DNA from: Bacteroidaceae bacterium
Lineage (GTDB): Bacteria; Bacteroidota; Bacteroidia; Bacteroidales; Bacteroidaceae
Length of the DNA: 64,000 bases
NCBI GenBank assembly: GCA_017547165.1
Contig: JAFYQK010000001.1
Coordinates: 95,422 to 159,421 of the forward strand
Direction of reading: 5' to 3'
The position numbers and the translations under genes are program-made. Positions 2,248 through 59,914 of this stretch are shown in pieces (positions within the stretch are counted from its first letter, which is position 1; every line of letters starts with the position of its first letter). Below the pieces are notes generated by a model. The model was not told the DNA's origin, did not search any database, and saw only the letters and a program-made list of their open reading frames with translations.

Positions 2248-2283
2248 AACGATAGAGGAAATGACCAGCAACACACGCATAGC

Positions 2284-3450: not shown

Positions 3451-3497
3451 TAATATAGATTTAAACATAGTATCTCACAATACACCTTATTATATAT

Positions 3498-7919: not shown

Positions 7920-7988
7920 AGAGTACAGATTGAGGTAGAGAAAGTGGGATTTATATCTTTTCTATACTTTATATAAGTTATCGGAGTA

Positions 7989-8031
7989 CCTAAGAGAACC
8001 TAAGATGGCATGTTTTTTGCTCACTGCTCAC
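7989..8031. repeat. Short word repeats: CCTAAGAGAA/CCTAAGATGG (10-bp period) followed by GCTCACTGCTCAC
   Basis: Read directly from the sequence. On the sense (minus) strand the upstream gene ends TAG-TGAGCAGTGAGC. Confidence 0.6.
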
Positions 8032-45328: not shown

Positions 45329-45360
45329 TAGTAATTGCTAATAATTTCGCATCAAAAGCT

Positions 45361-45400
45361 AATAAGGACCTGTTTTATGACAGGTCCTTATTTCTTTTTT
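45361..45400 (+). terminator. Intrinsic terminator
   Basis: TAAGGACCTG / CAGGTCCTTA stem followed by TTTCTTTTTT. Confidence 0.8.
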
Positions 45401-45497
45401 ATTGACTATAGTCTACCATAAAATAGTGATTATGCTATGACTGAATAGAACTTAACTTTACCATTTTTTGAGTATTGCGAGGTTTGGCGAATAGATG

Positions 45498-45505
45498 TAA
45501 TTTTG
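45498..45505 (+). promoter_or_regulatory. -7 promoter motif TAATTTTG for the 8-gene operon
   Basis: 22 nt upstream of the ATG at 45527. It overlaps the track's TTG start at 45503, which argues for the ATG at 45527. Confidence 0.45.
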
Positions 45506-45526
45506 CCGCCAGAAAATTTTGTACTT

Positions 45527-48502
45527 ATGAACCGAGCAATATATTATATTTATCTTTGTTTCTTTATTCTCTTTATGAGAGTAAATGGCATTACAGCTCA
45601 AACGCATAGTGAGGCACAATTGAGCGGTAGTGTCACAGATGCGCGTACCTCTAAACCTTTGGAGGGTGTGATGATAGCTGTGCTGAATACTGGATTGTGG
45701 ACTATCAGTGATGAGAAAGGTCAATTTCTAATAGATGGTATTCCGTATGCTAAATTCACCGTGAGGTTTAATCTTATGGGCTATAAGGAGGAAAAATATG
45801 ATTTGACCTTTGTTCAGAGAGAAAACATAATGGATATCTCTATGCATGAAAAGACACTTTCGTTAAGTGAAGTAGTTGTAACGGCACAGAGAAGAGTTGA
45901 GACACAAACTACCTCCTATATCATTGACCGTCAAGCTTTGAACCACTCGCAGATTATCAATCTCAATCAGATTACAACCTTGTTGCCAGGAGGAAAAACT
46001 ATTGGCGACCAGAATCTCGCCGGCCAGTCTTCCAGAGTAGCTTTGCATGCCGGCGTAGCAAGTGAAATGGGTAATGCTTCCTTTGGTACGGCAATAGAAG
46101 TGGATGGACAGCGACTTGAGAACAATGCTGTAATGAACGAGACAAAAGGTACTGACCTACGCAATGTAGGAACCTCTAATATAGAGTCCGTGGAGGTGGT
46201 ATTAGGAATACCATCTGTGGAATATGGTGATATTTCAAATGGTATGGTGAAGATTAATACACGTAAAGGTCGTACTCCATTCATGGCAGAGGTAATGTTT
46301 GAACCAAAAACCAAGATGCTGGCTATAGGTAAGGGATTTTCCTTACCAGGTAAACTTGGTGTGCTTAATGTCAGTGCCGAACACACCCGTTCGGTGAACG
46401 ACCTATCTTCGCCACATACCGCATACATGCGCAACAATATTGAGGTTGTATACTCAAATACTTTTCGCGATAAGGTCGGACGCCCACTATACATCTCGAC
46501 TCAATTGGCAGGTAATATTGGAGGTTTCAATTCTAAGTCAGACCCAGACGAGTTTCTTAATAATTATACAAAGATAAGTGATAATATGCTCCGAGGTGGA
46601 GCAAAGATGAATTGGCTACTTAATAAGAGTTGGATATCTAACATTTCACTTCAGGCCAACTTTTCCTATCGCAATATGCAGGAGGAAACAAATGCCAATA
46701 AAAGTTCAGCATCTACTCAACCATATATTCACACAACAGAGTATGGTTATCATGTTGCACAGAGCTATGATGAGAATCCCAATGCAGACATAGTGTTGGG
46801 GCCGACGGGCTATTGGTATGTACGCTCTTTCACTGACTCCAGACCCTTGACATACTCGTTCAAGCTAAAGGCAGACTGGTCAAGAAAATGGAAAGACATC
46901 TCGAACCGTATGATGCTTGGTGTTGAAGTAAACGGAAGTGGTAATTTAGGTCGAGGACACTATTATGAAAACATGCGCACTGCACCCACATGGCGCGAAT
47001 ATCGCTATGATAGTTTGCCGTTTATGAATAACATTGCTCTGTTTTTTGAGGATAAGTTTAGTTCCAACATTGGCACGAAGTCCACTTTACACATTACCGC
47101 TGGTTTGCGAACCGATATGACTCTTATCAGCAATAGTGCCTATGGTGCCAAGCTGAATCTGTCTCCACGCCTAAATACGAAGTATGTCTTTTGGCAAGGA
47201 CAAGAAGCTTTGATTAGCGACATGGCTATTTATGCTGGATGGGGACGCTCTGTAAAGCAACCCTCATTTACTGTTCTCTATCCTGCACCTACATATAGCG
47301 ACAAACTCTCTTTTGCTCCAGGTACCACAGCAGACGGCCATACCTTCTATGCTTATTACACACAACCCGTCACTCCTGTTTATAATCCCAACTTGAAGTG
47401 GCAATCTACTCATCAGAGTGAAATAGGGATAGAGACAGCTATTGGTGGCACACGCATATCGTTGTCTGCCTATAACAACAAGACCTTCAATCCTTATATG
47501 AGTCGTACGCTCTATACTCCTTATTCCTATCGCCTGACTACGCAGGCAGATATTGAGGTTGGCTGTACTATACCATCTGCTAACAGACAATATCTCGTTG
47601 ACAAGAATACAGGTATAGTAACCGTAAGAGATATCACCGGAAGGCATGCAGACCAGGTATTGGGATACAGGCAACAGAATACATTTGCTACACAAACGGA
47701 GTATACAAACGGCTCGCCCGTAGTAAGACGAGGTTTAGACTGGATTGTTGACTTTGCACAGATTCGTCCTTTGCGTACAAGCATTCGCATAGATGGAAAC
47801 TTTTATCACTACAAGGGTGTGAATCAGACCATTGTTTCGTCGACAGGTTGGGCATCTGCATCTATGGATGGTACACCTTATAAATATATAGGGTACTATG
47901 CTGGCTCTTCAACGGCAAGTAATGGAAATCTTTCTCAGCAGCTTAATGCTAACCTTACACTGGTGACTCATATCCCAAAGATTCGTATGGTCTTTTCCTT
48001 GCGTTTGGAAAGTACTCTATATACCTATAGGCAAAACCTGTCGGAGTATGCAGATGGCAGTTTAAGGGGTTATCTGCTCGAAGCTGCCGATGATTTCCAC
48101 GGTAGTCAGCAACAAGGTATTTACAATAAAGATGCATACGTAGCGGTATATCCAGAATACTATACATCGTGGAATGCACCAGAGGAAAAGGTTCCATTCT
48201 TAGAGAGGTTCATTTGGGCAAGAGAGAATGATAAGGAATTGTATCAAGATCTATCAAAACTGGTAGTGAAATCAAACACTTCGTACTATTTCAATGAAGA
48301 GCGTGTTACGGCATACTATGCCGCCAATTTGAATATAACAAAGGAGATTGGCAATGTGGCTTCCATAACCTTTTATGCCAGAAACTTCTTCTATCAGATG
48401 GGTAAGGTGAAGTCCTCTCAGACTGGACTTGAAAGTTCGCTATATGAAAGTAGACTTGTGCCTAAATTCTATTATGGATTGAGTTTGAGACTTAAACTAT
48501 AG
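45527..48502 (+). CDS. TonB-dependent receptor with N-terminal carboxypeptidase-regulatory-like domain (SusC-like layout, no SusD partner)
   Basis: The signal peptide ends ..GITAQ. A CarbopepD_reg-like segment follows (GSVTDARTSKPLEGVMIAVLNTGLWTISDEKGQFLIDGIP), then a plug and a large barrel. Confidence 0.85.
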   Translation: MNRAIYYIYLCFFILFMRVNGITAQTHSEAQLSGSVTDARTSKPLEGVMIAVLNTGLWTISDEKGQFLIDGIPYAKFTVRFNLMGYKEEKYDLTFVQRENIMDISMHEKTLSLSEVVVTAQRRVETQTTSYIIDRQALNHSQIINLNQITTLLPGGKTIGDQNLAGQSSRVALHAGVASEMGNASFGTAIEVDGQRLENNAVMNETKGTDLRNVGTSNIESVEVVLGIPSVEYGDISNGMVKINTRKGRTPFMAEVMFEPKTKMLAIGKGFSLPGKLGVLNVSAEHTRSVNDLSSPHTAYMRNNIEVVYSNTFRDKVGRPLYISTQLAGNIGGFNSKSDPDEFLNNYTKISDNMLRGGAKMNWLLNKSWISNISLQANFSYRNMQEETNANKSSASTQPYIHTTEYGYHVAQSYDENPNADIVLGPTGYWYVRSFTDSRPLTYSFKLKADWSRKWKDISNRMMLGVEVNGSGNLGRGHYYENMRTAPTWREYRYDSLPFMNNIALFFEDKFSSNIGTKSTLHITAGLRTDMTLISNSAYGAKLNLSPRLNTKYVFWQGQEALISDMAIYAGWGRSVKQPSFTVLYPAPTYSDKLSFAPGTTADGHTFYAYYTQPVTPVYNPNLKWQSTHQSEIGIETAIGGTRISLSAYNNKTFNPYMSRTLYTPYSYRLTTQADIEVGCTIPSANRQYLVDKNTGIVTVRDITGRHADQVLGYRQQNTFATQTEYTNGSPVVRRGLDWIVDFAQIRPLRTSIRIDGNFYHYKGVNQTIVSSTGWASASMDGTPYKYIGYYAGSSTASNGNLSQQLNANLTLVTHIPKIRMVFSLRLESTLYTYRQNLSEYADGSLRGYLLEAADDFHGSQQQGIYNKDAYVAVYPEYYTSWNAPEEKVPFLERFIWARENDKELYQDLSKLVVKSNTSYYFNEERVTAYYAANLNITKEIGNVASITFYARNFFYQMGKVKSSQTGLESSLYESRLVPKFYYGLSLRLKL

Positions 48503-48542
48503 ACAGACAAGGATTATAAACTAAATTAAATATATTACTACA

Positions 48543-49901
48543 ATGAAAAACCTATTCACTTTATTTGTGTTTGCAACACTTCTATTTTCATTTTTGGCAT
48601 GTACAGAGGAGGAATCACAGAATTATACCACATACGACGTATCGGTACGCCTCGTCGCTCCTGCAGAGATAACAGAAACTCCGTTTGAAGGTGTGGAAAT
48701 CCAGGCACATGGAAATACCGGTCTGACATTGAAGGCAAAGACTAATGCCTTGGGGATAGCATCGTTTAGCTTGCCAGAAGACATATATAATTTCAGTGCC
48801 TCCCACAAGTTTACAGAAGGTGGTACCGTCTTTCAAGTAAACTACCAACTGCAGAGAGCTGTCACAAGGCAGGATTTTGTAAATACTGCTTCTTTAGTAT
48901 TGGAAATGACTCCTATGCTTAGTCAGGGTTGGAAGCAAATTATTCTGAAGGAACTTTATGTCGGTGGATGTGCTAAAGACGATGGCTCGGGAAACTATCA
49001 GTATGACAAGTTTGTGGTAATCTATAATAATTCGGACAAGGTGGCGGAAGTACCCAATTTCTGTATTTCAAATGTAGGTCCATACAATGCACATGGCAAT
49101 AATGCAAACTATGTTGATGGCAAACTCGTCTATGCCGAAGAAGATTATACTCCTGCTTATGCCTATGTGTTCTATTTGCCAAGAACGCTTGTAATGCAAC
49201 CCTACACCTCGGCTACCATTGCTTTGAGCGGAGCTATTGACCACACTGCTACTTATACAAAATCTGTAGACTTGAGTGTGGCAGATTTGGTCTGCTATGA
49301 TGCTGAAGACTTCTGGAGCACAAGTTATCATCCTGTTCCTTCGGAGAAAATTCCTTCAGAAAACTATATGCTTGCTTCAAAGTTATGTGCTGCCGGACAG
49401 AATGCTGCATCATGGAGTATGATAGCCCCAGGCATATTCATTTTCTCAACAGGCGACAATGATCCCTTGGCCTTTACCCAAAGTATGGATAACCGATACT
49501 ATATGCCAGGTAAACAGGATAATCCCGTATATGCTTGTGCAAAGATTCCCAATGATTGGATCTTTGATGCCGTAGATATCTGGGGGGCAGATTATGTGGG
49601 TGAATCTATGCCACGCTTTTCTCCTTCACTTGAAAGTGGTTCAATCTACATGATTAACAAACAAGGTTATTCAATATATCGTAATGTGGATAGGGAGGCA
49701 ACAGAGGCTTTGCCCGAGAATGAAGGAAAGTTGGTGTATAACTATAACCTCGGTACCACTGACAACCAGGGGGCTCCCTCAACAGACCTCAGTGGTATTG
49801 ATGCCGAGACTTCCATTGCAAATGGTGCACATATAGTGTATATGGATACGAACAATTCCCAAAACGACTTTCATCAGCGCAGAACAGCAAGTTTGAAGTG
49901 A
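48543..49901 (+). CDS. Lipoprotein with Ig-like N-terminal domain and lamin-tail-domain-like segment (DUF4876-like from memory)
   Basis: 452 aa with a lipobox (..SFLAC). An LTD-like stretch is present (KELYVGGCAKDDGSGNYQYDKFVVIYNNSDKVAEV). Confidence 0.65.
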   Translation: MKNLFTLFVFATLLFSFLACTEEESQNYTTYDVSVRLVAPAEITETPFEGVEIQAHGNTGLTLKAKTNALGIASFSLPEDIYNFSASHKFTEGGTVFQVNYQLQRAVTRQDFVNTASLVLEMTPMLSQGWKQIILKELYVGGCAKDDGSGNYQYDKFVVIYNNSDKVAEVPNFCISNVGPYNAHGNNANYVDGKLVYAEEDYTPAYAYVFYLPRTLVMQPYTSATIALSGAIDHTATYTKSVDLSVADLVCYDAEDFWSTSYHPVPSEKIPSENYMLASKLCAAGQNAASWSMIAPGIFIFSTGDNDPLAFTQSMDNRYYMPGKQDNPVYACAKIPNDWIFDAVDIWGADYVGESMPRFSPSLESGSIYMINKQGYSIYRNVDREATEALPENEGKLVYNYNLGTTDNQGAPSTDLSGIDAETSIANGAHIVYMDTNNSQNDFHQRRTASLK

Positions 49902-49947
49902 TAAAAACACTAATTATATCGCATTGTATTAAGGACGAACTAATAAT

Positions 49948-51579
49948 ATGAAATGGAGATATCTTCCCACCTTACTCATCGTATGGACTCTAACAACCGG
50001 CATTATGGCTCTTGAACCAGAACGAAAGTCTGGTCTAAGAGTGGACTCGCTTGACTGGCAGCGTATATCTAAAATGCGTTCAGGACAGGGGTGCTTGCAT
50101 AGCGAGAATGCGGCATGGCTTACGGACTTTAGTCAGAGGACGATGTCCGAAGTGAATTTGTATGGTAAGATGAATGGTGGAGATTTCAAGAACTACTTTA
50201 CTTCTTCTTCCGAACTTTCTTTTGGTGTAGATGCCTCATCAATCTGTCGTTTGTCAAAGCGTGTAGCTTTGGAGGGTAGAGTTGGGTATTGCAATACGCA
50301 ACACTCTGCTCTTGCTGGCTCTGCCTTTATTGACCCTACACAAACACCTTTCGACATAGTTGAATTTACCGATGAGAATCGTGGTGACAAGAAGACAGAG
50401 CAATATTCACTTCTCGGACGTGTGGGAGTAGATGTTTCCCAACGTATTGCTCTTGGTGCCTCTTTCTCCTATGTTGCGGCCAACTATGCAAAGTATAAGG
50501 ATTTGCGTCATACAAATTCGTTGATGGCTATGGACCTTACATTAGGCACACTGTTCAGGCTGGGCAAGGGTGTAAGTGTGGGTTTGGATTATGCCTATAC
50601 CCGTCGTATTGAGAGTATTAGCTTTAATACCTATGGAACTCAGGACAAGGCCTATGCATCACTCTTGAATTATGGAGCCTTCTTTGGTAAAAAAGAAGTG
50701 TTTGGTGATATGGGCTATACTAAGTCTGGGGAAACAAAACCCTTGCTTGATGTTTATCATGGAGGTGCGATACAGCTTTCGTGGGAGATTACAGAAAATT
50801 TGCGATGGTTCAACGAGGCTGGTTTTCGTACACGCAATGGCTATTACGGAAATCCCTCGCAAAGCACCGTGATGTATGCCGAGCATGGGGGGATGGAGTA
50901 TTACTATAAGAGTGTGCTAAATACAATACATTTATTGAATCGACACAATGTATTCTTCGACCTCAGACACTACGGTGTCTCAACTCAGGAGAATGTATAT
51001 GCCTTTCGCAACGAAGAAACGGGACTTGACTATATCGAGTATCTTGGACAAAGGGAAGTTGGTAATCGTAAACTAACAACGTTTTCTCTTGCTTACGAGG
51101 GATTTTTTCATGAAAGGAACGGCATTGCACAATGGCAGAGTTGTGCAAGGATGTATTATAATAATCGTGCCATTCATGCCTCAAATTATCCAGATTATCG
51201 TAAGCAAAACCTTAACTGGTGGAGCATAGAGGCTTCTGCCACGCGAAATATCGTGAACAAGGAGAAAAACTGCTACTCGCTATCTTTGCTCGCTCTTTAT
51301 GGTGGTGGAGCAGGAAAACCTTATAATGACGGCAAGTATGTACAAACGGCAGATGGTGGCGCGCTGACCTATATGCGCAACGACCTATTGTATCAAGAAT
51401 GGGAATACCTCACTGCCACACAAATCGGATATGGTGCCGCCATTGAATACTCGCGCCATCTTGGTAAGGCAATATTGAATGTTGCTCTTTCGGGTAATGT
51501 TCGTCATGCATTTAACACCCAGTATCTGACTAACCCAATGCGATACGAACTGGCTCTGAATATAGGTTGCAGATTTTAA
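49948..51579 (+). CDS. Orphan outer-membrane beta-barrel protein (DUF6850-like from memory)
   Basis: 543 aa with a signal peptide. Alternating aromatic beta-strand patterns run throughout, and the C-terminus is ..NIGCRF. Confidence 0.6.
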   Translation: MKWRYLPTLLIVWTLTTGIMALEPERKSGLRVDSLDWQRISKMRSGQGCLHSENAAWLTDFSQRTMSEVNLYGKMNGGDFKNYFTSSSELSFGVDASSICRLSKRVALEGRVGYCNTQHSALAGSAFIDPTQTPFDIVEFTDENRGDKKTEQYSLLGRVGVDVSQRIALGASFSYVAANYAKYKDLRHTNSLMAMDLTLGTLFRLGKGVSVGLDYAYTRRIESISFNTYGTQDKAYASLLNYGAFFGKKEVFGDMGYTKSGETKPLLDVYHGGAIQLSWEITENLRWFNEAGFRTRNGYYGNPSQSTVMYAEHGGMEYYYKSVLNTIHLLNRHNVFFDLRHYGVSTQENVYAFRNEETGLDYIEYLGQREVGNRKLTTFSLAYEGFFHERNGIAQWQSCARMYYNNRAIHASNYPDYRKQNLNWWSIEASATRNIVNKEKNCYSLSLLALYGGGAGKPYNDGKYVQTADGGALTYMRNDLLYQEWEYLTATQIGYGAAIEYSRHLGKAILNVALSGNVRHAFNTQYLTNPMRYELALNIGCRF

Positions 51580-51643
51580 TTTTATATTTCTGCCTCAATA
51601 GAATAAAACAAATCAAAATAAATCAGACAAAATATATACAATT

Positions 51644-52216
51644 ATGAAACTGAAAAACTTATTCATTTTGGCTATCTCAGCCATAGTGCTTGCTTCATGT
51701 GGAAGTAAGACAAACGAAAGTAAGAGTGAGGTAACGGAAGAACTGTCCTCCTCTCTCTCTGTAGATGATCTCCTTTTAAATGCCGATTCCTTGACTGATC
51801 AGGAAATTCTTATCGAAGGTATCTGCACACACACCTGTAAGCATGGTGCAACAAAAATCTTCGTGATGGGCAGCGACGATACAAAGACTATACGTGTGGA
51901 GGCGGCAAGTCTAGGTTCTTTCGACCAAAAATGCATCAACAGCATTGTTCGCATCAAAGGTATTCTTCGTGAGGAAAGGGTGGATGAGGCTTATCTGCAA
52001 CGCTGGGAAGCGGCATCTTCCGTTCAGGCAGAACAGCATGGGGAGACTGAAGCGGGATGCGATACGGAGAAAGCTGCTCGTGGAGAAAAAGGCAATAGTG
52101 TAGTAGAGCGCATAGCTGATTTCCGCGCAAAGATAGCGGCACGCAAGGAAGTTTGTGGTAAGGAATACCTTTCTTTCTACTTTGTAGAGGCTTTGGCATA
52201 TGAAATTCTCGAGTAG
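51644..52216 (+). CDS. Small lipoprotein, OB-fold-like core with CTHTCKH motif and acidic/Ala-rich tail
   Basis: 190 aa with a lipobox (..VLASC). The core segment is EILIEGICTHTCKHGATKIFVMGSDD..IVRIKGIL. Confidence 0.6.
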   Translation: MKLKNLFILAISAIVLASCGSKTNESKSEVTEELSSSLSVDDLLLNADSLTDQEILIEGICTHTCKHGATKIFVMGSDDTKTIRVEAASLGSFDQKCINSIVRIKGILREERVDEAYLQRWEAASSVQAEQHGETEAGCDTEKAARGEKGNSVVERIADFRAKIAARKEVCGKEYLSFYFVEALAYEILE

Positions 52217-52769
52217 TAAGTTGCGCACATGGTGTCGCACCATTCATCGTGATTTGTCATACTTCTTCTCGGGTATGGTACTCATCTATGCTATTTCGGG
52301 ATTGGTGATGAACCATCGCGACACTATAAATCCGCACTATTCAGTATCGCTTATCGAAAGACAGGTGCATGACCTCCCATCGCAAAGCGAATTCGGCCGT
52401 CCACAGGTGGAGGAACTTATGCTAATGGTTGGTGTGACGGAGCGCTATACGAAGCATTACTTCCCGCGACCTGGGCATTTGAAAGTCTTCCTCAAAGGAG
52501 GCTCTTCGTTGGAGGCGAACATAGTTACTGGTCATGTGGTGTACGAGTCCTTGACGCGTCGTCCTCTGCTCAGTACTATGACCACCTTGCATTATAACCC
52601 TGGCAAGTGGTGGACATGGTTTGGCGATGCTTTTGCCATTTCACTCGTGATGATCACCCTCACTGGCATTTTCATGATAAAAGGCAAGAAGGGGCTGTGG
52701 GGTAGAGGTGGAATAGAACTTGTGGTGGGTATGCTCATCCCTGTTCTTCTGATCTTATTCATTAAATAA
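52200..52769 (+). CDS. PepSY-associated TM-helix protein (short PiuB/FoxB-like)
   Basis: 189 aa. The RTIHRDLSYFFSGMVLIYAISGLVMNH motif is present, with further TM helices. It overlaps the upstream gene by 17 nt. Confidence 0.65.
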   Translation: MKFSSSKLRTWCRTIHRDLSYFFSGMVLIYAISGLVMNHRDTINPHYSVSLIERQVHDLPSQSEFGRPQVEELMLMVGVTERYTKHYFPRPGHLKVFLKGGSSLEANIVTGHVVYESLTRRPLLSTMTTLHYNPGKWWTWFGDAFAISLVMITLTGIFMIKGKKGLWGRGGIELVVGMLIPVLLILFIK

Positions 52770-52789
52770 CAGTTTGTTTTCATAGGATT

Positions 52790-53668
52790 ATGGAAAATAT
52801 CATAGAATGCCGTAACCTTACACATTATTACGGTAAACGTTTGATTTACGAAAATCTTTCTTTCAATGTGCCTCGTGGTCGTATCCTTGGTCTTCTTGGA
52901 AAGAATGGTACAGGTAAGACAACGACGATAAACATACTGAGCGGTTTCCTACAACCTCGTAGCGGCGAATGCCGTATATTAGGTGAGAAGATAGGTGAGA
53001 TGAATCCGTTCACACGACGTAAGATAGGTCTGCTCATTGAGGGACATGTTCAATATCAGTTCATGAATATCGAAGAGATAGAGCGTTTCTATGCCTCGTT
53101 CTATCCCAATTGGAAGCGTGAGGCGTACTACGAACTTATGAGCCGTCTGAAGGTGGCACCGCACCAGCGCATCAACCGTATGTCGTGCGGACAGCGGTCG
53201 CAAGTGGCACTGGGCCTCATTCTGGCTCAAGATCCAGAGGTACTTGTTTTGGACGATTTCTCTTTGGGACTCGACCCCGGCTATCGTCGTCTGTTCGTTG
53301 ATTATATGCGTGAGTATGCCAAGGCCGAGGACAAGACAGTCTTCCTAACCTCTCACATTATACAGGACATGGAGCGATTGGTGGACGATTGCATAGTGAT
53401 GGACTATGGCAAGATACTCGTGCAGATGCCGGTTAAGGAACTGCTTGGCACCTTCCGCAGATACACGGCACAGGTGGGTGATGGTTTTGAAATGCAGGAG
53501 ATTCCAGACATGTACAATCCATCGGTTATACGTCAGACTTTGGAAGTTTTCTCTATGCATCCTGAAGATGAAGTGAAGGCACAACTCTCACTCTTGGGAG
53601 TAAACAATGTTCAGGCAGAACATGTTGGACTGGAGGATGCCTTCATCGGACTGACAGGTAAATACTAA
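52790..53668 (+). CDS. ABC transporter ATP-binding protein
   Basis: 292 aa with Walker A (GKNGTGKTT), a degenerate signature (MSCGQRSQ) and Walker B (VLVLDD). Confidence 0.85.
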   Translation: MENIIECRNLTHYYGKRLIYENLSFNVPRGRILGLLGKNGTGKTTTINILSGFLQPRSGECRILGEKIGEMNPFTRRKIGLLIEGHVQYQFMNIEEIERFYASFYPNWKREAYYELMSRLKVAPHQRINRMSCGQRSQVALGLILAQDPEVLVLDDFSLGLDPGYRRLFVDYMREYAKAEDKTVFLTSHIIQDMERLVDDCIVMDYGKILVQMPVKELLGTFRRYTAQVGDGFEMQEIPDMYNPSVIRQTLEVFSMHPEDEVKAQLSLLGVNNVQAEHVGLEDAFIGLTGKY

Positions 53669-53688
53669 CAACTAATATTGCCAAAATC

Positions 53689-54360
53689 ATGATAAAAGCT
53701 ATATTTTATAAAGAATGGATAAAGACAAGGTGGTATCTGTTGCTTGCCTTTGTCGTATCCATGGGTTTTGCCATCTACGCTATGTTGCGCATATCTCGTG
53801 TATGCTCTTTAAAGGGAGTAGACCACTTGTGGGTGGTGATGATGCAGCGTGATGCCATATTCGTTGAACTATTACAATATGTTCCCATGATACTTGGTCT
53901 TATTCTTGCCATTGTCCAGTTTGCACCTGAGATGCACCATCGCTCGTTCAAACTGACATTGCATCTGCCCATCCGTGCTACCAAGGCACTTGCCTCCATG
54001 CTATCATTCGGAATGATGGTTTTGCTGCTGACGTTTCTTCCAGCCTTGTTGCTCATGTGGGGCTATTTGCAAACTATTCTCGCACCAGAACTCTATTGGC
54101 ACATTCTGCTCAGTGTCTTGCCATGGTATCTTGCTGGTGTCGCGGCATATCTGCTTGCATGTTGGGTGGCATTAGAACCCACATGGGGCAGGAGGGTGTC
54201 AAATCTTGTAATCGGAATATTGTTGCTGCGCATGTACTTTCTTGCACCGGCACCAGAGGCATATAACGAGTTCTTGCCGCTTCTCGTTATAGTGACTTTA
54301 TCTTATAGTCTATTGTCAGTGCTCTCTCTAACACGCTTCCGTGATGGTAGACAAGATTGA
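53689..54360 (+). CDS. ABC-2-type-like integral membrane protein (about 6 TM)
   Basis: 223 aa and very hydrophobic. It lies directly after the ATPase with a 20-nt gap. Confidence 0.6.
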   Translation: MIKAIFYKEWIKTRWYLLLAFVVSMGFAIYAMLRISRVCSLKGVDHLWVVMMQRDAIFVELLQYVPMILGLILAIVQFAPEMHHRSFKLTLHLPIRATKALASMLSFGMMVLLLTFLPALLLMWGYLQTILAPELYWHILLSVLPWYLAGVAAYLLACWVALEPTWGRRVSNLVIGILLLRMYFLAPAPEAYNEFLPLLVIVTLSYSLLSVLSLTRFRDGRQD

Positions 54361-54385
54361 ATAATCTGTATTAAACTAAACTTTT

Positions 54386-55420
54386 ATGTTCAAGATAAGT
54401 AAAATATTATTTTCACTTATAGTCATGTTTCTGCTTGTATGGCAGCTGCCGGCATGCTATAACTTCTTTATGTCCACACCGGTAGACACTCCTTTTACCT
54501 TGTATAGCTCCATAGCTAGAGACTTTGCTTCTTTGCAAACAGATGAAAACAAGAAGATGCATTACAGAGATGCATCTGGCAATGAATACACCGAAGAGCA
54601 GTTCGACTCCATCCTGCCTGCCTTCTATTATCGTCAGTTGGTAACAGACGGCAGATTTCCGGACACAATCTGTGGTATTTCTGTCACTCCACGACAGATT
54701 CAGTTGGCAAATTTTACCATGCGCCTATCTCCTTTGGACCTTAATAAACCCAAATTGGGATTATGGCAGATGCTCGAAACCATGTCGGGACGCGTAGATT
54801 TGGAGTTACCCGACGATGCATTCCGTATTACCTCTGACGGCATTGAGTTTGTGAAGATGGAAACAAACACCGTGGACGTTGACAAGAGTCAGCGCTTTAC
54901 CAAGGCGATGAAACAGAAAGGATTCGAGTTTCCTGCTCTATCTCTCTCGGGCAATCCTACCGACAGAAAGGAATATGACGAGGGATATGCCATGCTGGAT
55001 GCAGTCAAGAAGCTGTACCATGTAAAGCAAACGGTAGGCCGTCCTTATGTCAAGGCAATCAGTTTGCCAGAAGGACTGGTGCCCCAGCATTTGTTTATCA
55101 CAGAATTTCCTTCGCGAAAATGGTTGTGTTTCCTTACCGATGTTGAAGGTTATCTATGGGTGGTTGAGCGAGAATCCTATGCTGTCAAACCTACGGAGAT
55201 TCCTTCGTTCAATCCCAGCGAGGAATCAGCACTCATCATCGGCAATATGTTTGACTGGACTGTTAAGGTAAACCGTGCCGAAAGAGAATGCTATTATGCT
55301 ATCTCGGCAAAGGATTATTCTCTCATTGATTCCCTAAGCTATGAGACTCCGGTGCATCGCATGCTTGGCCTGACTTTCACCACCTCAAAGGATAAGTTTG
55401 TTAAACCACGATTTAAATAG
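54386..55420 (+). CDS. N-terminally TM-anchored protein of unknown function (DUF4857-like from memory)
   Basis: 344 aa with a single N-terminal helix (ILFSLIVMFLLVWQLPA). It is the last gene of the operon. Confidence 0.6.
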   Translation: MFKISKILFSLIVMFLLVWQLPACYNFFMSTPVDTPFTLYSSIARDFASLQTDENKKMHYRDASGNEYTEEQFDSILPAFYYRQLVTDGRFPDTICGISVTPRQIQLANFTMRLSPLDLNKPKLGLWQMLETMSGRVDLELPDDAFRITSDGIEFVKMETNTVDVDKSQRFTKAMKQKGFEFPALSLSGNPTDRKEYDEGYAMLDAVKKLYHVKQTVGRPYVKAISLPEGLVPQHLFITEFPSRKWLCFLTDVEGYLWVVERESYAVKPTEIPSFNPSEESALIIGNMFDWTVKVNRAERECYYAISAKDYSLIDSLSYETPVHRMLGLTFTTSKDKFVKPRFK

Positions 55421-55439
55421 CACTCCTAATTCTATACAG

Positions 55440-55483
55440 AAAACGGAAAACGCAGAACTTTCACATTCTCGTTTTCCGTTTTT
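55440..55483. terminator. Bidirectional intrinsic terminator between convergent operons
   Basis: AAAACGGAAAACG / CGTTTTCCGTTTT 13-bp stem. Confidence 0.75.
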
Positions 55484-55538
55484 CATTTAATGAACCTATA
55501 TAGTTTTCGTTAATCTCGAACTGTTAAACTTTCCACGC

Positions 55539-56795
55539 TCACTCCAGATACTTCATTATATCACCCGAAATCTGGCGGAGGGAAATCTCGCATAGTTTGG
55601 TGTTGTACTGGGCTTCCAGGATGCGTTCTTCTGCATCGAGGAGCGATTGCTGGGCTTCGCGCATCTCTATACCAGAGAGTGAACCAAGCATATAGCGCTC
55701 GTGTGCAATGTAGTGGTTCTCTTTTGCTGTGATGAGGTTCTCACGCTCCAGAGAAAGCAAGCGAAGGTTGTTCTTGTAGGCCTGCCACAGGTCGGCAAGG
55801 TCGGAGCGCAGGGATTGCTCCAGTTGCATGCGTGCCAGGTCGGCATTCTCAATGTTCAGTCGTGCATTGCGCTTCTGGCTTGTACGCTTGCCGTCGAAGA
55901 TATTATAGCCCACCTTCACACCGAAGTCCACACCACCTCGACCATTACCATCTATGGTATGCTGGTAGTTATATCCGGCATTGAGTTTGATGTATGGATA
56001 GTCGCGGCTCATTGTGGCCTTGTAATCCAGTTCTGCCAAACGAATGTCGTGCTTCTTGTTCAAAAGTTCGGCATTAAGTTGCATTGTTGCCTCAAGGAGA
56101 GAGTCGTGCATAAGGGTGGCATCAACCTCTATTGCTGAGTCGTTCAGCATCAAGGGGGTTTGCATATCCTTCACCGCCATCAGTTCGTAAAGACGAATGC
56201 GCGATGTTGCCATCAGTTCGTGTTGCTTCAAGCTCTGCGCACTATCGGCGTTGAAGTCCACCTGTGCCTGCTGGAGGTCAAGGCGCGAAGCACTACCTAT
56301 GCTATAACGCTCGAGCACAATGCGCAGACGCTCCTTGGAGAGTTTTACGGCATTGTTGAGGTTGCGCATGCGAATCTTTTGCTGTATAAGGTTGTAGTAC
56401 TCAGCTGTAAGTGTGGCCACATAATCCTCTATAGACAAGCGGGTGCGTGTGGCACCCTGGCGCTTCAGTTCCTGTAGTTTGCTATATGTTGCCTGTATCT
56501 TGAATCCGTCGAACAGAGTCCATTCGGCATTAACACCTGCCTGAAGGCCATGGCCCAGTTGTCCCTCCCCAGTGTCCAACGTGCCACTGTAGCCAACAGT
56601 GGCATTCACAGTGGGCAGGTATCCGGCATTTGCCGCGGTGGCATTGTTGGCACTGATTGCCTCCTCGTTGCGTGCTATCTTTAGGTTGTAGTTGTTCTCC
56701 AGACCAGTGGCTATAAAGTCGGCCAGTGTCTGTCCCCCCATCTTTCCGCATACGGGTATGGCGAGGACTATCAAAAGGTATCTAAGGTGTTTCAT
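55539..56795 (-). CDS. TolC-family outer-membrane efflux protein
   Basis: 418 aa with a signal peptide and two OEP repeats. It overlaps the pump gene by 4 nt (ATGA). Confidence 0.85.
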   Translation of the reverse strand: MKHLRYLLIVLAIPVCGKMGGQTLADFIATGLENNYNLKIARNEEAISANNATAANAGYLPTVNATVGYSGTLDTGEGQLGHGLQAGVNAEWTLFDGFKIQATYSKLQELKRQGATRTRLSIEDYVATLTAEYYNLIQQKIRMRNLNNAVKLSKERLRIVLERYSIGSASRLDLQQAQVDFNADSAQSLKQHELMATSRIRLYELMAVKDMQTPLMLNDSAIEVDATLMHDSLLEATMQLNAELLNKKHDIRLAELDYKATMSRDYPYIKLNAGYNYQHTIDGNGRGGVDFGVKVGYNIFDGKRTSQKRNARLNIENADLARMQLEQSLRSDLADLWQAYKNNLRLLSLERENLITAKENHYIAHERYMLGSLSGIEMREAQQSLLDAEERILEAQYNTKLCEISLRQISGDIMKYLE

Positions 56796-59700: not shown

Positions 59701-59824
59701 TGTCCACCGAGGGGTATTCCCTCACGCCCAGCGACATATAGCCCACGGCACCGAAGATGAGTATGAGCAGTGTCATCACCGTGGCAAGCACCGGTCGTCG
59801 GATGGAAAGTTCAGATATGTTCAT
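56792..59824 (-). CDS. RND efflux transporter permease (HAE1/AcrB family)
   Basis: 1010 aa with the N-terminus MNISELSIRRPVLATVMTLL.. and 12-TM AcrB architecture. Confidence 0.92.
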   Translation of the reverse strand: MNISELSIRRPVLATVMTLLILIFGAVGYMSLGVREYPSVDNPIISVSCSYPGANADVIENQITEPLEQNINGIPGIRSLTSVSQQGSCRITVEFELSVDLETAANDVRDKVSRAQRFLPRDCDPPTVSKADADAMPILMVALQSDKRNLLELSEIADLTVKEQLQTIPDVSSVMIWGEKKYCMRLWLDPVKMSGYGVTPMDVKSALDRENVELPSGSIEGNTRELSIRTMGQMSTTEEFNNLVIKESEGRIIRFSDIGRAELSARDIKSYMKMNGVPMVGVVVIPQPGANHIDISDAVHERMAMMEKDLPEDVHYDYGFDNTKFIRASIAEVETTVYEAFVLVIIIIFLFLRDWRVTLIPCLVIPVSLIGAFFVMYLLDFSINVLSMLAVVLSVGLVVDDAIVMTENIYIRIERGMRPFEAGIEGAKEIFFAVISTTVTLLAVFLPIVFMEGQTGRLFREFSFVVAGSVVISSFAALTITPMLATKLLVNREEKNWFYRKTEPFFEGLNNIYTRCLNAFLRRRWMAIPLMVVALGACVAMWMNVPSEMAPLEDRSSITIRTMGPEGVTYEYMRDYTEDINRLADSLMPDAEFITARVSDGGGNIQITLKDLAERDYSQMEVAEKLSKAVRGKTDARAFVQQQSTFGGRRGSMPVQYVLQATSIEKLEKVLPQFMARVYDNPVFQMADVDLKFSKPEVRLSVNREKANLMGVSTKDIAQTLQYGLSGQRMGYLYLNGKQYEIVGEINRQQRNDPTNLKAIYMRSTDGKMVQMENLVDLVESIAPPKLYRYNRFVSATISAGLTPGHTIGDGLDEMDKIAKDVLDDTFRTALSGDSKEFRESSSSLLFAFGLALVLIYLILAAQFESFKDPFVIMLTVPLAIAGALIFMLVGGQTMNIFSQIGIIMLIGLVAKNGILIVEFANQRQRMGEDKMTAIREASVQRLRPILMTSVSTILGLLPLMFASGEGSAGRVAMGTAVVGGMLISTVLTMFVVPAIYSYVATSLQKKLQR

Positions 59825-59840
59825 CTGTTATTGATTTTTA

Positions 59841-59900
59841 GAGTTTAGGGTTTTCTAGGTTCTCTTAGGGTGTCCTAGGCTTTCCTGGAATTTCCTAATA
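59841..59900. repeat. Six degenerate 10-bp-periodic words (..TAGG/TAGGG..) between the adaptor and pump genes
   Basis: gagttTAGGg ttttcTAGGt tctctTAGGg tgtccTAGGc tttccTGGAa tttccTAATa. Confidence 0.8.
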
Positions 59901-59914
59901 AAATCGCTCAGCGC

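Follow-up and report, generated by a model that had tools for sequence, protein, structure and literature searches.

Described counterparts of the locus

The operon analysed here, from a gut Bacteroidaceae bacterium, has a described counterpart in the locus BT3625-BT3633 of Bacteroides thetaiotaomicron, which holds the same gene families in the same order and one extra gene (BT3630). Dipyridyl at 150 µM induces BT3625-BT3633 36.7-128-fold, and data from mouse colitis show a 14-19-fold rise; xus, hmu and fldA are co-induced with it (PMC10434189). All nine of its genes are co-induced, and the dipyridyl induction occurred with hemin in the medium. Mutants of BT3632 and BT3633 gave no clear phenotype across 519 fitness assays. 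The signal peptide of BT3630 sends cargo to vesicles and supernatant. In Porphyromonas gingivalis a pair of a TonB-dependent receptor and a DUF4876 protein, PG1019-20, occurs without the DUF4857 module and is called an 'uncharacterized transport system' in a 2026 paper; the pair responds to haem limitation with induction, and does so in a hemH mutant as well. For DUF4876 proteins, a role as lids on non-SusC TonB transporters has been predicted (bioRxiv 10.1101/2023.03.17.533168). AlphaFold-Multimer models made by others place the DUF4876 proteins BT3632 and BT1938 on the outer receptor face with an opening of ~20 Å, and a homolog of BT1938 in B. fragilis is surface-exposed. Behind other TonB receptors, FoxB, FpvG and XusC have been shown or proposed to be periplasm-facing ferric reductases.

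An earlier note on this DNA considered the system a candidate undescribed one. This view has to be given up, since its ortholog is the published iron-starvation- and colitis-induced locus mentioned above. Identities to the B. thetaiotaomicron-type locus (L035) are 61% for g4, 58% for g5, 74% for g6, 57% for g7, 54% for g8 and 37% for g1. The induction data thus come from a relative with 37-74% identity and were obtained with a chelator in place of defined iron limitation.

Organization of the operon

ORF calling on the window (the whole stretch of 64,000 nucleotides that was analysed) yields eight plus-strand genes, g1-g8, and the same eight appear in independent public annotations of identical contigs. 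The distances between successive genes, from g1 to g8, are 40, 46, 64, -17, 20, 20 and 25 nt, as the earlier note had it (eight same-strand ORFs at 45527-55420, spaced by 20-64 nt, with one 17-nt overlap). The upstream hairpin closes a GH16 gene that is unrelated to the operon, and marks the upstream limit of the latter. The terminal hairpin is common to the eight-gene operon and a convergent RND efflux operon. Its folding energies of -20.4 kcal/mol (z = -6.8) on the plus strand and -21.7 kcal/mol (z = -5.0) on the minus strand, together with the U-runs, agree with the strong bidirectional terminator noticed before. The claim that the operon lacks an internal terminator also stands: 11 internal terminator-like matches were found versus 8.5 +/- 3.1 in shuffled sequences, all of them weak and within coding sequence, and none is convincing.

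Table 1. Features of the operon and its flanks (positions in the window)
Feature	Position	Strand	Description
Upstream hairpin	45361-45392	bidirectional	13-14 bp stem, followed by T-runs on both strands
Distal operator-like site	45414-45429	+	TACCAT-AAAA-TAGTGA, degenerate copy of TACCTA-N4-TAGGTA
Proximal operator-like site	45459-45477	+	TACCAT-TTTT-TGAGTA, fused to the -33 TTG (45475-45477)
-7 promoter element	45498-45505	+	Bacteroides-type, TAATTTTG
g1, TonB-dependent receptor	45527-48502	+	991 aa; ATG start, in-frame TTG at 45503; signal peptide, CarboxypepD_reg-like domain, plug, barrel
g2, DUF4876 lipoprotein	48543-49901	+	452 aa; Pfam profile, lipobox FLAC
g3, DUF6850 outer-membrane beta-barrel	49948-51579	+	543 aa; signal peptide, C-terminal ...GCRF
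g4, OB-fold lipoprotein	51644-52216	+	190 aa; lipobox LASC, without acidic export signal
g5, PepSY_TM-like inner-membrane protein	52200-52769	+	189 aa, half-size; 17-nt overlap with g4
g6, ABC ATPase	52790-53668	+	292 aa; ABCA/DrrA/NosF-like group; PF00005 (ABC_tran), 2e-23
g7, six-TM membrane protein	53689-54360	+	223 aa; between g6 and g8 in all loci
g8, DUF4857 protein	54386-55420	+	344 aa; N-terminal TM anchor, beta-rich periplasmic domain
Terminal hairpin	55439-55483	bidirectional	intrinsic terminator with U-runs on both strands

The outer-membrane proteins

The receptor g1 matches PF13715 (CarbopepD_reg_2; 1.7e-16), PF07715 (Plug; 2.3e-6) and PF00593 (TonB barrel; 1.2e-15), in accordance with the carboxypeptidase-regulatory-like N-domain read from the sequence before. 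It does not match the SusC/RagA models and is therefore of the non-SusC type; with the lack of a SusD partner, this upholds the earlier view that the locus is not a polysaccharide utilization locus. Among solved structures, no sequence relatives were found for any of the operon proteins except the generic ATPase g6 (for g1, none in the PDB at E <= 0.01). After the lipobox of g2 comes an acidic stretch, TEEES, similar to a lipoprotein export signal, and g2 is probably a surface-exposed 'lid' of g1. The Ig-like and lamin-tail-like segments previously ascribed to g2 were not confirmed by the profile search. The family labels suggested in the earlier note (DUF4876, DUF6850 and DUF4857) all turned out to be right, for g2, g3 and g8.

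The barrel g3 matches PF21012 (DUF6850) over its full length (1.1e-34), and its relatives carry the NCBI name 'DUF6850 family outer membrane beta-barrel protein'. It had been taken for an orphan, but DUF6850 adjoins the receptor and the DUF4876 gene in all contexts examined and is the constant third member of this trio. Where the g4-g8 module is absent, a PqqL/FusC-type M16 protease adjoins the trio in five of six loci; this protease as the alternative partner of the trio is new here. One trio locus is followed downstream by a ResB/CcsA fusion, a haem-handling protein.

The periplasmic lipoprotein and the PepSY-like protein

No Pfam family was found for g4 in the profile search. Its model (pLDDT 79.6) gives Foldseek matches to OB folds only, which backs the earlier 'OB-like' label, and the CTHTCKH motif is located at residues 61-67 (C61-T-H63-T-C65-K-H67). 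Residues C61, H63, C65, H67, C97 and H132 are invariant. Clustering of the wider family at 50% identity gives 905 clusters. Family-wide, the motif lacks a conserved first Cys, and HxCxH or HxC remains; HxCxH is kept in 84 of the 101 full-length members. Some members have His/Asp-rich inserts, and 13 of the 101 contain at least four His in a 25-residue window. Such Cys/His ligands and His-rich loops suit Zn, Ni, Co and Cu as well as Fe. We regard g4 as a periplasm-facing, putative metal or cofactor chaperone. A periplasmic metallochaperone with an OB fold has an established precedent in CusF.

The assignment of g5 as a PepSY-associated TM protein holds through its match to PF16357 (PepSY_TM_like_2; 1.9e-14), although against PF03929 (PepSY_TM) it scores 26.3 bits, below the gathering cut-off of 28.8, with only profile positions 2-163 of 295 aligned. 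The invariant residues H16, H39 and H131 flank TM helices. FoxB has four TM helices and two PepSY domains with two bis-His haems; g5 is a half-size protein and gives no match to FoxB in the PDB search. By analogy, g5 is a putative haem-dependent ferric reductase that would work as a dimer. Two close relatives of the operon (L007 and L008) have no g5.

These features also bear on the possibility that haem, a porphyrin or a haem-peptide is the cargo, imported by g1 and bound by g4 and g5, with the ABC part acting like CcmAB or CcsBA. PepSY_TM proteins bind haem b, the CxxxCxH of g4 loosely recalls CXXCH, and both the haem response of PG1019-20 and the ResB/CcsA fusion next to one trio point the same way. 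Against this, the wider family has not conserved the first Cys of the g4 motif, a profile scan of the operon revealed no HmuY, HmuS or ChuT-type genes, B. thetaiotaomicron responds to dipyridyl despite hemin in the medium, and the five protease-associated variants indicate protein cargo generally, not haem specifically. We consider a haem-type cargo quite unlikely.

The ABC transporter and DUF4857

The earlier description of g6-g8 as an ABC ATPase, a six-TM protein and a TM-anchored protein is confirmed. The best NCBIfam models for g6 are PmtA, DrrA, GldA and NodI, with every score below cut-off, and the closest solved nucleotide-binding domains are those of ABCA3, ABCA1, ABCA7 and ABCA4, followed by 4yer, MlaF-like chains and NosF. 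This class is typically of the exporter or mechanotransducer type, not of the importer type. The presumed permease partner of g6 is g7, which contains conserved polar motifs and has no Pfam or PDB match. Its 'ABC-2' label was not confirmed by sequence profiles, ABC2_membrane_2 being matched in only one of 19 homologs (E = 0.049). The signature partner of g6 and g7 is g8, which matches PF16149 (DUF4857; 3.7e-105) and has a conserved K-x-Y-D-E-G-Y motif without a Cys/His cluster. The best PDB matches of its model (pLDDT 86.3) are beta-propellers with TM-scores of about 0.2-0.34, so that it has no close structural relative.

The class of g6 raises the question of whether the ABC/DUF4857 part exports a scavenger, a spent apo-carrier or a surface or vesicle lipoprotein, of which the loaded form is retrieved by the TonB receptor and its lid; the DUF6850 barrel may then be the outer-membrane exit. 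Such a cycle would resemble pyoverdine recycling, in which PvdRT-OpmQ acts alongside FpvA. The nearest g6 relatives are indeed exporters or lipid extractors, g3 is plug-less, and variant loci encode extra surface lipoproteins (BT3630 and small lipoproteins with export signals). Likewise, the operon contains no classical substrate-binding protein and, in a profile scan, no FecCD permease, which also sets it apart from Btu, Hmu and siderophore loci, as noted earlier. However, DUF6850 is kept with the receptor and DUF4876 where the ABC module is absent, which ties it to import and not to the ABC transporter. Moreover, genes for scavenger biosynthesis were not found in or near the operon, and model comparison revealed no resemblance of g8 to membrane-fusion adaptors. 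Export followed by recapture is therefore judged unlikely.

Promoter and operator

The single Bacteroides-type promoter proposed before was recovered, with the box lying exactly 20 nt downstream of the -33 TTG. This spacing is modal for promoters of the same type (54 of 126 operator matches in metagenomes). The operators in question conform to the consensus ATACCTA-N4-TAGGTAT-TG, which overlaps the -33 element and precedes the receptor gene at a fixed distance from the -7 box; exact matches in metagenomes are followed 19-20 nt downstream by TAnnTTTG in 59 of 126 cases. In the window both operator copies are degenerate. The proximal site fits 9 of 14 consensus positions and is weak on its own, and the significance of the copies rests on register and tandem arrangement. 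When aligned on the -7 box, the proximal site has a register identical to that of the operator of more than 20 related promoters. The distal site lies 45 bp upstream of the proximal one, and related loci (e.g., L022, L051, L065 and L073) have tandem copies 43 bp apart.

The first genes 3' of the metagenome operators include 10-11 TonB receptors, five FeoA (four of them FeoAB), five CCG Fe-S proteins, four hemerythrin/RIC-like proteins and three AhpC, and a flavodoxin operon is also preceded by the consensus. The consensus operator thus defines an iron/oxidative-stress gene set, and the palindrome common to these operons, feoAB, other TonB receptors, ahpC and flavodoxin genes is new here. Since a palindrome shared with feoAB and iron-homeostasis genes overlaps the -33 element, the operon should be repressed at iron sufficiency.

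The same gene set weighs on a further alternative, in which Zn, Co, Ni, Cu or a metal cofactor is acquired and the chelator produces the apparent iron regulation indirectly. The HxCxH and His/Asp-rich loops of the g4 family, comparable to those of ZnuA, UreE and HypB-like proteins, are in keeping with it, as is the binding of Cu(I) by the OB-fold protein CusF. Similarly, the layout recalls NosL/NosDFY, in which a lipoprotein chaperone, ABC ATPase, permease and periplasmic partner serve copper, and NosF is among the g6 matches. An operator common to feoAB, flavodoxin and RIC-type genes and the co-induction of the ortholog with xus, hmu and fldA speak against this proposal, and a PepSY-type reductase is chemically sensible for Fe(III), not for Zn, Ni or Co. 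A metal other than iron is thus improbable.

Conservation and modularity

A DUF4857 gene is present in 237 species representatives, and co-conservation was counted in the 66 loci whose upstream sequence extends over 9 kb or more. All 66 contain g6, g7 and g8, and DUF4876 is found in 65, g4 in 64, the receptor in 63 and g5 in 62. DUF6850 was detected in 50 of the 66 with our own HMM; a Pfam scan of six loci without such a match showed it in all six. The neighbourhood comparison across Bacteroidota that the earlier note had proposed thus identifies a single co-conserved envelope operon. This operon is a composite of the outer-membrane trio and a more conserved g4-g8 module, which is new here.

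Independence of the two modules, merely adjacent and with the ABC/DUF4857 part as an envelope-stress or detoxification pump, is highly improbable. Separate transcription units occur in some genomes, and two Alistipes MAG contigs (L037 and L057) have g4-g8 without a nearby trio. Nevertheless, the modules are linked in about 63-65 of the 66 loci, in at least four Bacteroidales families and in three arrangements (co-directional, divergent or separated), the same operator precedes both units in split loci, and in B. thetaiotaomicron co-induction extends to all nine genes.

Proposed function

The explanation that we favour, with slightly better than even confidence, is that the eight genes make up a TonB-dependent acquisition system of the iron regulon, which processes iron-bearing cargo in the periplasm. 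Metal acquisition, one of the options of the earlier note, is supported by the iron-induced ortholog and the operator shared with feoAB; surface export, the other option, is less likely. In the proposed mechanism, the surface lipoprotein g2 would cap g1 and help to catch the cargo, which would then be drawn into the periplasm via g1, with g3 as the obligatory third partner of both. There, a g5 dimer may take part in processing as a FoxB-like di-haem ferric reductase, and the released metal, or cofactor, would be taken over by g4 via its HxCxH or Cys/His site. Finally, g6, g7 and g8 would spend ATP on one of two tasks, inward transport of the metal or cofactor, or extraction or clearance of the carrier once it is spent; the second task fits better with their class. 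The whole would be driven by one promoter and repressed through the palindromic operator when iron is sufficient.

Across relatives, conservation is much higher in the inner module, with identities of 69-91% for g6 and 56-71% for g4, than in the outer one, with 22-68% for g1-g3. This gradient fits variable cargo recognition that feeds one common periplasmic step.

Organization of the operon and its flanks

The operon consists of eight consecutive ORFs on the forward strand, in the arrangement that the earlier note had read from the sequence, and the public gene calls of identical contigs contain the same genes, g1 to g8. The intergenic gaps measure 40, 46, 64, 20, 20 and 25 nt, while g4 and g5 overlap by 17 nt. 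The promoter element TAATTTTG claimed in front of the operon is real. The claim that no internal terminator is present also stands: 11 terminator-like matches are found, compared to 8.5 ± 3.1 in shuffled sequences, and all of them are intragenic. The operon is framed by hairpins on both sides. The downstream one was correctly described as a strong bidirectional terminator (-20.4 kcal/mol on one strand and -21.7 kcal/mol on the other; z = -6.8 and -5.0, respectively), and it is common to the operon and a convergent RND efflux operon. The genes of the upstream flank, which encode oxaloacetate decarboxylase subunits, a DUF4199 protein and a GH16 protein, are unrelated to the operon; further downstream of the RND efflux operon lie genes for M18 and S9 peptidases. 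Across window positions 45000-56000 the G+C content of the operon is 0.38-0.47, below that of the oxaloacetate decarboxylase genes (0.49-0.51) and of the RND efflux genes (0.52-0.55), which may reflect either horizontal acquisition or the composition usual for envelope genes.

The family labels DUF4876, DUF6850 and DUF4857 suggested in the earlier note proved to be correct in Pfam. The exact sequences of g3 and g4 are on deposit as hypothetical proteins of a Bacteroidaceae MAG. A role of the operon in anti-phage defence was considered and rejected, PADLOC matching only g6, and this to generic ABC/AAA models.

Features of the operon, its surroundings and related loci (window positions, or positions in the locus named)
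Feature	Sequence	Position	Strand	Remarks
Bidirectional hairpin, strong	window	45361-45392	both	upstream frame of the operon
Operator copy	window	45414-45429		canonical register
Operator copy	window	45459-45474		canonical register; followed by TTG, 20 nt and TAATTTTG
Promoter element TAATTTTG	window	45498-45505		
Operon, g1-g8	window	45527-55420	+	eight ORFs
g1	window			TonB receptor: CarboxypepD_reg-like domain, plug and barrel (Pfam)
g2	window			DUF4876 (Pfam)
g3	window			DUF6850 (Pfam)
g4	window			no Pfam family
g5	window			PepSY_TM_like_2 (Pfam)
g6	window			ABC ATPase (Pfam)
g7	window			no Pfam family
g8	window			DUF4857 (Pfam)
Bidirectional terminator hairpin	window	55439-55483	both	
RND efflux operon, convergent	window	55539-60997	-	TolC-like OEP, AcrB-family pump, membrane-fusion protein; unrelated to the operon
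Region without g5	L007, L008	~7560-8290		g4, then ATPase gene
Operators of a split locus	L064	8282, 13688		one before each transcription unit
M6-like metallopeptidase	L064	11045-13213		directly after DUF4857
Broken DUF6850 gene	L069 (B. nordii)	2002-3578		two ORFs
Operator-like palindrome CCTACCAATATGTAGGTAT	L028-L047 group	~2000-2900		inside the receptor coding region; e.g. L035, 2160
M16 peptidase	L088	10657-13473		
M16 peptidase	L089	13441-16245		
M16 peptidase	L091	13444-16245		
M16 peptidase	L092	1861-4647		
M16 peptidase	L093	10622-13495		
ResB/CcsA fusion	L090	10842-13889		

Outer-membrane proteins

TonB-dependent transporters consist of an N-terminal plug within a 22-strand β-barrel and possess a TonB box that touches TonB. 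The plug-in-barrel arrangement is present in g1, with scores of 28.5 bits for the plug (PF07715, cut-off 23.9) and 58.8 bits for the barrel (PF00593, cut-off 27), and the sequence LSEVVVTAQRR, which resembles the TonB boxes of Bacteroidota, lies at the start of the plug as a candidate TonB box. No SusC/RagA model in NCBIfam, including TIGR04056, matches g1 at E ≤ 0.01, and none of the operon proteins has a SusD match in Pfam. The view of the earlier note that the layout is not a PUL is thus upheld, a SusC-type receptor with an adjacent SusD-like lipoprotein not being encoded. No chain in the PDB matches g1 at E ≤ 0.01, though structures of FusA and YddB have been published; sequence searches of the PDB with g1, g2, g3, g4, g7 and g8, and with profiles of g5 and g7, likewise yielded nothing usable.

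The lipobox of g2 (FLAC) is followed by the acidic stretch TEEES, akin to the lipoprotein export signal of Bacteroidota, and this combination would fit a surface lid. The lamin-tail and Ig-like segments ascribed to g2 were not recovered, since Pfam returns only DUF4876 even at E ≤ 5. With respect to g3, the DUF6850 gene of B. nordii (L069) is broken into two ORFs and represents a frameshift or a pseudogene. In L069 and L044 a protein of 1005-1397 residues with InlB-B-repeat and GLUG motifs is encoded between DUF6850 and g4.

The g4 lipoprotein family

The lipobox of g4 (LASC) is followed by GSKTNES. Since an acidic run after the cysteine is absent, g4 should remain periplasmic. The model of g4 (pLDDT 79.6) consists of an OB barrel and a C-terminal helical hairpin, and a Foldseek search with this model retrieves OB folds only, including tRNA-synthetase anticodon domains, SSB/RPA and YgiW. 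Residues C61, T62, H63, C65, H67, C97 and H132 are invariant in 49 g4 homologs. When 1.84 billion representative proteins are searched with a profile of the family, 905 clusters at 50% identity are obtained; the HxCxH motif is kept in 84 of 101 full-length members, the complete CxHxCxH in 51, and HxC in most of the others. At least four histidines within a 25-residue window occur in 13 of the 101, and in the examples read whole (e.g. the proteins P0402, P0453, P0457 and P0479) stretches rich in His, Asp and Glu follow a conserved W-E motif, at a position that corresponds to a low-confidence loop of the g4 model. This motif pattern is the signature of a metal-binding protein, and the family is likely to bind metal. 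An established precedent for an OB fold in such a role is CusF, a periplasmic Cu(I)/Ag(I) chaperone.

Small extra genes in variant loci were considered as g4 paralogs and rejected, as they encode unrelated small lipoproteins with export signals. A 585-residue DUF4857-g4 'fusion' (P0389) was discounted as Rosetta-stone evidence; it is possibly an artefact of assembly or gene calling, and probably a read-through of adjacent genes because its g4 part retains its own signal peptide. The metagenomic protein P0412, which combines an N-terminal domain resembling g4 with the core of a histidine kinase, may be an artefact of the same type.

Inner-membrane proteins

The g5 protein passes the PepSY_TM_like_2 profile (PF16357) with 54.6 bits (cut-off 27). 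Its score against PepSY_TM (PF03929), the family of FoxB, FpvG and XusC, is 26.3 bits, under the gathering score of 28.8, and the alignment is confined to positions 2-163 of the 295 in the profile, so that g5 is not assigned to this family; a profile search of the PDB with g5 returned no FoxB chain. FoxB is pseudo-symmetric, with four TM helices and two PepSY domains, and binds two b haems with bis-His ligation. With 189 residues, approximately three TM helices and a single periplasmic domain, g5 is half-size. It contains three invariant histidines (H16, H39 and H131) at the ends of TM helices, and by analogy a g5 dimer could supply haem ligands as in FoxB.

The best NCBIfam models for g6 are PmtA, DrrA, GldA and NodI, all under their equivalog cut-offs, and its nearest solved structures are ABCA3/1/7/4, 4yer, MlaF-like chains and NosF (7o0y). 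It is thus a DrrA/ABCA/NosF-like ATPase that groups with the ATPases of exporters and extractors. The g7 protein, which is constantly adjacent to g6, combines six hydrophobic segments with polar motifs that are conserved. It has no Pfam match at E ≤ 0.01 and no PDB match, and ABC2_membrane_2 was matched, at 0.049, in one of 19 g7 homologs. The six segments and the adjacency to g6 would fit a permease of the ABC2_membrane family but do not prove it, and the profiles do not support g7 as a provable ABC-2 permease.

The g8 protein consists of an N-terminal anchor and a β-rich domain (model pLDDT 86.3). The best matches of the model among solved structures are β-propellers with TM-scores of at most 0.34, and no close structural relative is found. 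A NosD-like β-helix was rejected as fold of g8: none is present among the 50 listed Foldseek matches, which include only weak propellers. A K-x-Y-D-E-G-Y motif is invariant in g8, and a Cys/His cluster is absent. Neither FecCD nor Peripla_BP_2 is found by Pfam among the eight proteins, as anticipated in the earlier note, which had pointed out the lack of a FecCD permease and a binding protein.

Conservation of the two modules and possible alternative partners of the trio

A DUF4857 alignment was scanned against one genome per species, which revealed relatives in 237 species, and the best 80 loci were used for analysis of the gene neighbourhood. Bacteroides, Phocaeicola, Alistipes, Parabacteroides, Mediterranea, Dysgonomonadaceae and uncultured Bacteroidaceae are represented among them, and ruminant guts are the source of many. 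Across these 80 loci the order g4-g5-g6-g7-g8 is kept, so that the co-conservation proposed as a check of the operon is indeed observed. The inner module (g4-g8) is well conserved, with identities of 69-91% for g6 and 56-71% for g4, and those of the outer-membrane trio (g1-g3) range from 68% to 22%; the Pfam contexts of low-identity loci show that a TonB receptor, DUF4876 and DUF6850 are still encoded. In an HMM census restricted to those 66 loci whose upstream sequence extends over 9 kb or more, g6, g7 and g8 are present in all 66, DUF4876 in 65, g4 in 64, the TonB receptor in 63 and g5 in 62. DUF6850 was detected in at least 50 of the 66 by our own HMM, which under-detects divergent members; Pfam scans served as correction, and six of the other loci were scanned in this way, all of them positive.

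Several variants of the layout occur. The trio is divergent from g4-g8 in L085, L086 and L087, and some loci contain a small extra lipoprotein. In the close relatives L007 and L008 (g8 71-72% identical) g5 is missing and g4 is followed by the ATPase gene. A rarer variant (L060, L064 and L066) encodes g6-g7-g8, an M6-like metallopeptidase, a small surface lipoprotein and the trio, without g4 and g5. The metallopeptidase (722 residues, with the HExxH motif HEFGH) directly follows DUF4857 in all three, and partial M6-like copies immediately precede the operon in two further Bacteroides loci (L058 and L077). Apart from M6-like genes in five of the loci, genes for M16, S46 and M6 peptidases are absent from the window and the 80 DUF4857 loci.

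Six distant relatives of g3 from the DUF6850 family (30-34% identity) were examined in their contigs, all of which are without the DUF4857 module. In five of these six trio-only loci an M16 peptidase of 928-957 residues adjoins the TBDR-DUF4876-DUF6850 trio, and two also contain an S46 peptidase. The M16 protein of L088 retrieves from the PDB, in this order, an unnamed M16 protein (9ldy), E. coli PqqL (1e-68) and three entries (6b03, 6brs and 6b05; ~1e-36) that were deposited as 'putative zinc protease' and presumably represent Pectobacterium FusC. The trios adjacent to M16 suggest a Bacteroidota version of protease-associated import; the association of trio and M16 in Bacteroidota is an observation of the present analysis, the paper on protease-associated import systems (PAIS) having no Bacteroidota content. 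As M16 never occurs in the 80 DUF4857 loci, the M16 protease and g4-g8 behave as alternative partners of the trio, which for a sample of six and 80 loci is a lead, not proof. In the sixth trio-only locus (L090) an ECF sigma/anti-sigma pair comes first and the trio is followed, instead of by a protease or ABC module, by a cytochrome c synthase-like ResB/CcsA fusion of 1015 residues. Of the trio-only loci, L089 has FUR, flavodoxin and FMN_bind genes nearby, and L091 an iron cluster of the imelysin/DHOR/porin type.

A conserved operator-promoter architecture

When receptor upstream regions are aligned on their -7 boxes, the Bacteroides-type promoter elements, a palindrome (A)ATACCTA-N4-TAGGTAT(TG) emerges that is fused to the -33 TTG. 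This operator is often present in two copies, 43 bp apart, upstream of the receptor genes. In split loci (e.g. L064, L066, L069 and L086) it precedes both transcription units, and it is also located upstream of M16-type trio loci and of a flavodoxin operon. In the window both copies are degenerate (TACCAT for TACCTA), with agreement at 9 of 14 positions for the proximal site, and neither would be significant alone. Metagenome contigs were scanned for the exact pattern of 16 specified bases, which yielded at least 126 matches. In 59 of the 126 listed, TAnnTTTG is located exactly 19-20 nt past the TTG, compared to ~0.06 expected by chance. The first downstream genes, available for 54 of the 59 listed, include 10-11 TonB receptors, 5 FeoA (4 of them FeoAB), 5 CCG-domain (LutA-like) Fe-S proteins, 4 hemerythrin/RIC-like proteins, 3 AhpC and 2 DUF4856 proteins, and because of these gene types the operator is considered to mark an iron and oxidative-stress gene set. 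The architecture is present in gut, marine, lake and sediment metagenomes. A classical Fur box was rejected as the identity of the operator, since the conserved palindrome differs, and no paper describing the palindrome was found in the literature.

The counterpart in Bacteroides thetaiotaomicron

Very little was found in a full-text search of the literature for the names DUF4876, DUF6850 and DUF4857. The B. thetaiotaomicron locus BT3625-BT3633 encodes DUF4857 alongside a hypothetical protein, an ABC ATPase and PepSY-TM proteins, and also BT3630, which belongs to the fimbrillin family, as well as DUF4876 proteins and a TonB receptor; it is up-regulated 36.7-128-fold in BHI with hemin upon addition of 150 µM dipyridyl and 14-19-fold in a mouse colitis data set (PMC10434189). 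All eight families are linked in the same order in the window. In tblastn alignments with the locus of a B. thetaiotaomicron MAG (L035), which also follow this order, the identities are 37% for g1, 26% for g2 and 33% for g3 (with partial coverage), and 61%, 58%, 74%, 57% and 54% for g4 to g8, respectively. A gap of ~1.5 kb in this alignment corresponds to BT3630, an additional surface lipoprotein gene between DUF6850 and g4 that is absent from the window. The B. thetaiotaomicron promoter contains the same type of operator as the related loci, including the window. Separately, a near-perfect operator-like palindrome, CCTACCAATATGTAGGTAT, is conserved within the receptor coding region of the B. 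thetaiotaomicron-type loci, and could be due to chance, to coding constraint or to an internal regulatory site.

A tentative guess put forward for BT3625-BT3633 is that of a 'fimbrillin synthesis/transport locus' (PMC10434189); nothing in the present analysis supports this label. By AlphaFold-Multimer, the DUF4876 proteins BT3632 and BT1938 are predicted to be lids on non-SusC receptors with an opening of ~20 Å; DUF4876/receptor gene pairs are conserved in 59-81 genera, and no clear phenotype was observed for these lid and receptor genes in 519 fitness experiments (10.1101/2023.03.17.533168). The B. thetaiotaomicron locus is known from transcriptomics and this lid prediction alone. The DUF4876/TBDR pair of P. 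gingivalis, PG1019-20, responds to limitation of iron or haem with strong induction, and a paper of March 2026 still refers to it as an 'uncharacterised transport system'. Transcriptomics had already drawn attention to BT3625-BT3633, of which the operon is an ortholog, so that the operon in itself does not count as a new discovery. Nevertheless, the system probably represents a separate, uncharacterised form of iron acquisition through TonB, with four conserved components (DUF6850, the g4 family, g7 and DUF4857) that have no characterised relative.

Comparison with known systems

The operon does not fall within SusCD, Xus, Nos, the type II importers or the protease-associated import systems. 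XusABC (BT2063-65) is a xenosiderophore system of Bacteroides that is induced by iron limitation and colitis (PMC13142918). Like the operon, it combines a TonB receptor that is not of the SusC type with a lipoprotein lid at the surface and an inner-membrane protein of the PepSY type. However, the Xus lid is a DUF4374 β-propeller and the predicted lid of the operon DUF4876, with no DUF4374 detected by Pfam in the operon, and Xus lacks the second barrel, the OB-fold lipoprotein and the ABC/DUF4857 part. XusC is a PepSY domain-containing inner-membrane reductase (PMC13142918), whereas for g5 the match to the PepSY_TM profile extends over just one half.

In the protease-associated import systems Fus (FusA/B/C/D of Pectobacterium) and YddB-PqqL-YddA (E. 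coli) a TonB receptor imports ferredoxin and a protease frees the Fe-S cluster, with an ABC transporter proposed for the inward step (PMC6793856, PMC6042079). The likeness to these systems resides in the trio, which adjoins a PqqL/FusC-clade M16 in five of the six loci without the DUF4857 module. In contrast, no specific relationship of g1 to FusA or YddB was detected and the window contains no protease; FusD and YddA, moreover, are of a different ABC type. As no FusC/PqqL-type M16 accompanies the receptor in the window, the operon is placed beside this family rather than within it.

For iron release from pyoverdine, Pseudomonas employs the FpvG(HJK) reductase, the metal-binding proteins FpvC and FpvF, the ABC transporter FpvDE and the recycling system PvdRT-OpmQ: following TonB-dependent import, a PepSY_TM reductase frees periplasmic Fe(II), which is captured by a periplasmic protein and imported by one ABC transporter, while another system expels the empty carrier. 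The logic is the same as that proposed for the operon, but only the PepSY_TM-like protein is homologous to an operon component; no periplasmic binding-protein fold is encoded in the window, and its ABC transporter is of another class. The NosDFY-NosL machinery for copper delivery combines a lipoprotein that chaperones the metal, a DrrA/NosF-like ATPase, a permease with six TM helices and a further protein as periplasmic partner, to which g4, g6, g7 and g8 would correspond, and in NosDFY ATP is spent on periplasmic metal handling instead of transmembrane transport. Nevertheless, NosD is a β-helix whereas g8 has a different, weakly propeller-like β-rich fold, NosL lacks the OB fold of g4, and Nos is not known to have a TonB receptor or iron regulation. 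With CusF, g4 shares the design of a small periplasmic OB-fold protein; CusF binds its metal on a face of the barrel for hand-over to a transporter. However, CusF is soluble, uses Met/His/Trp ligands and serves an efflux pump, whereas g4 is a lipoprotein with putative His/Cys ligands and a C-terminal helical extension.

Functional implications

The best-supported reading is that the operon is a TonB-dependent acquisition system of the iron regulon, in which the variable outer-membrane trio would recognize the cargo and the conserved g4-g8 module would handle a common intermediate, most simply a metal. Its closest functional analogies are Xus, pyoverdine-iron release and Fus/PqqL, with NosDFY-NosL for the ABC part, and the class of the ABC/DUF4857 part argues against simple import.

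A more specific proposal, which we consider unlikely, is that the trio imports whole iron proteins or bulky iron carriers and that g4-g8 is an ATP-powered, non-proteolytic alternative to the PqqL/FusC protease. The trio would then be a Bacteroidota machine analogous to Fus ferredoxin piracy, and a type-V-like ABC mechanotransducer with DUF4857 as its periplasmic arm would work with g5 and g4. Jointly, the ABC/DUF4857 part, the half-size PepSY reductase and the OB-fold His/Cys lipoprotein would remove the iron or the Fe-S cofactor from the imported cargo and bind it. If true, g4-g8 would be a previously unknown counterpart of the protease of protein-iron piracy.

Whatever its cargo, such an iron-regulon acquisition system would have a bearing on the gut community, which during inflammation is shaped by competition for iron; the orthologous locus is among the most strongly induced operons of B. 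thetaiotaomicron in iron limitation and in colitis. The constant parts of the system are now defined as an outer-membrane trio and a five-gene periplasmic and inner-membrane module. The analysis adds a likely metal-binding family that has no Pfam model and an arrangement of promoter and operator by which a set of iron-homeostasis genes can be recognized across Bacteroidota. The cargo of those TonB receptors of Bacteroides that are neither SusC nor Xus, the release and hand-over of iron in the periplasm of Bacteroidota and the regulator of the iron regulon have thereby become testable.
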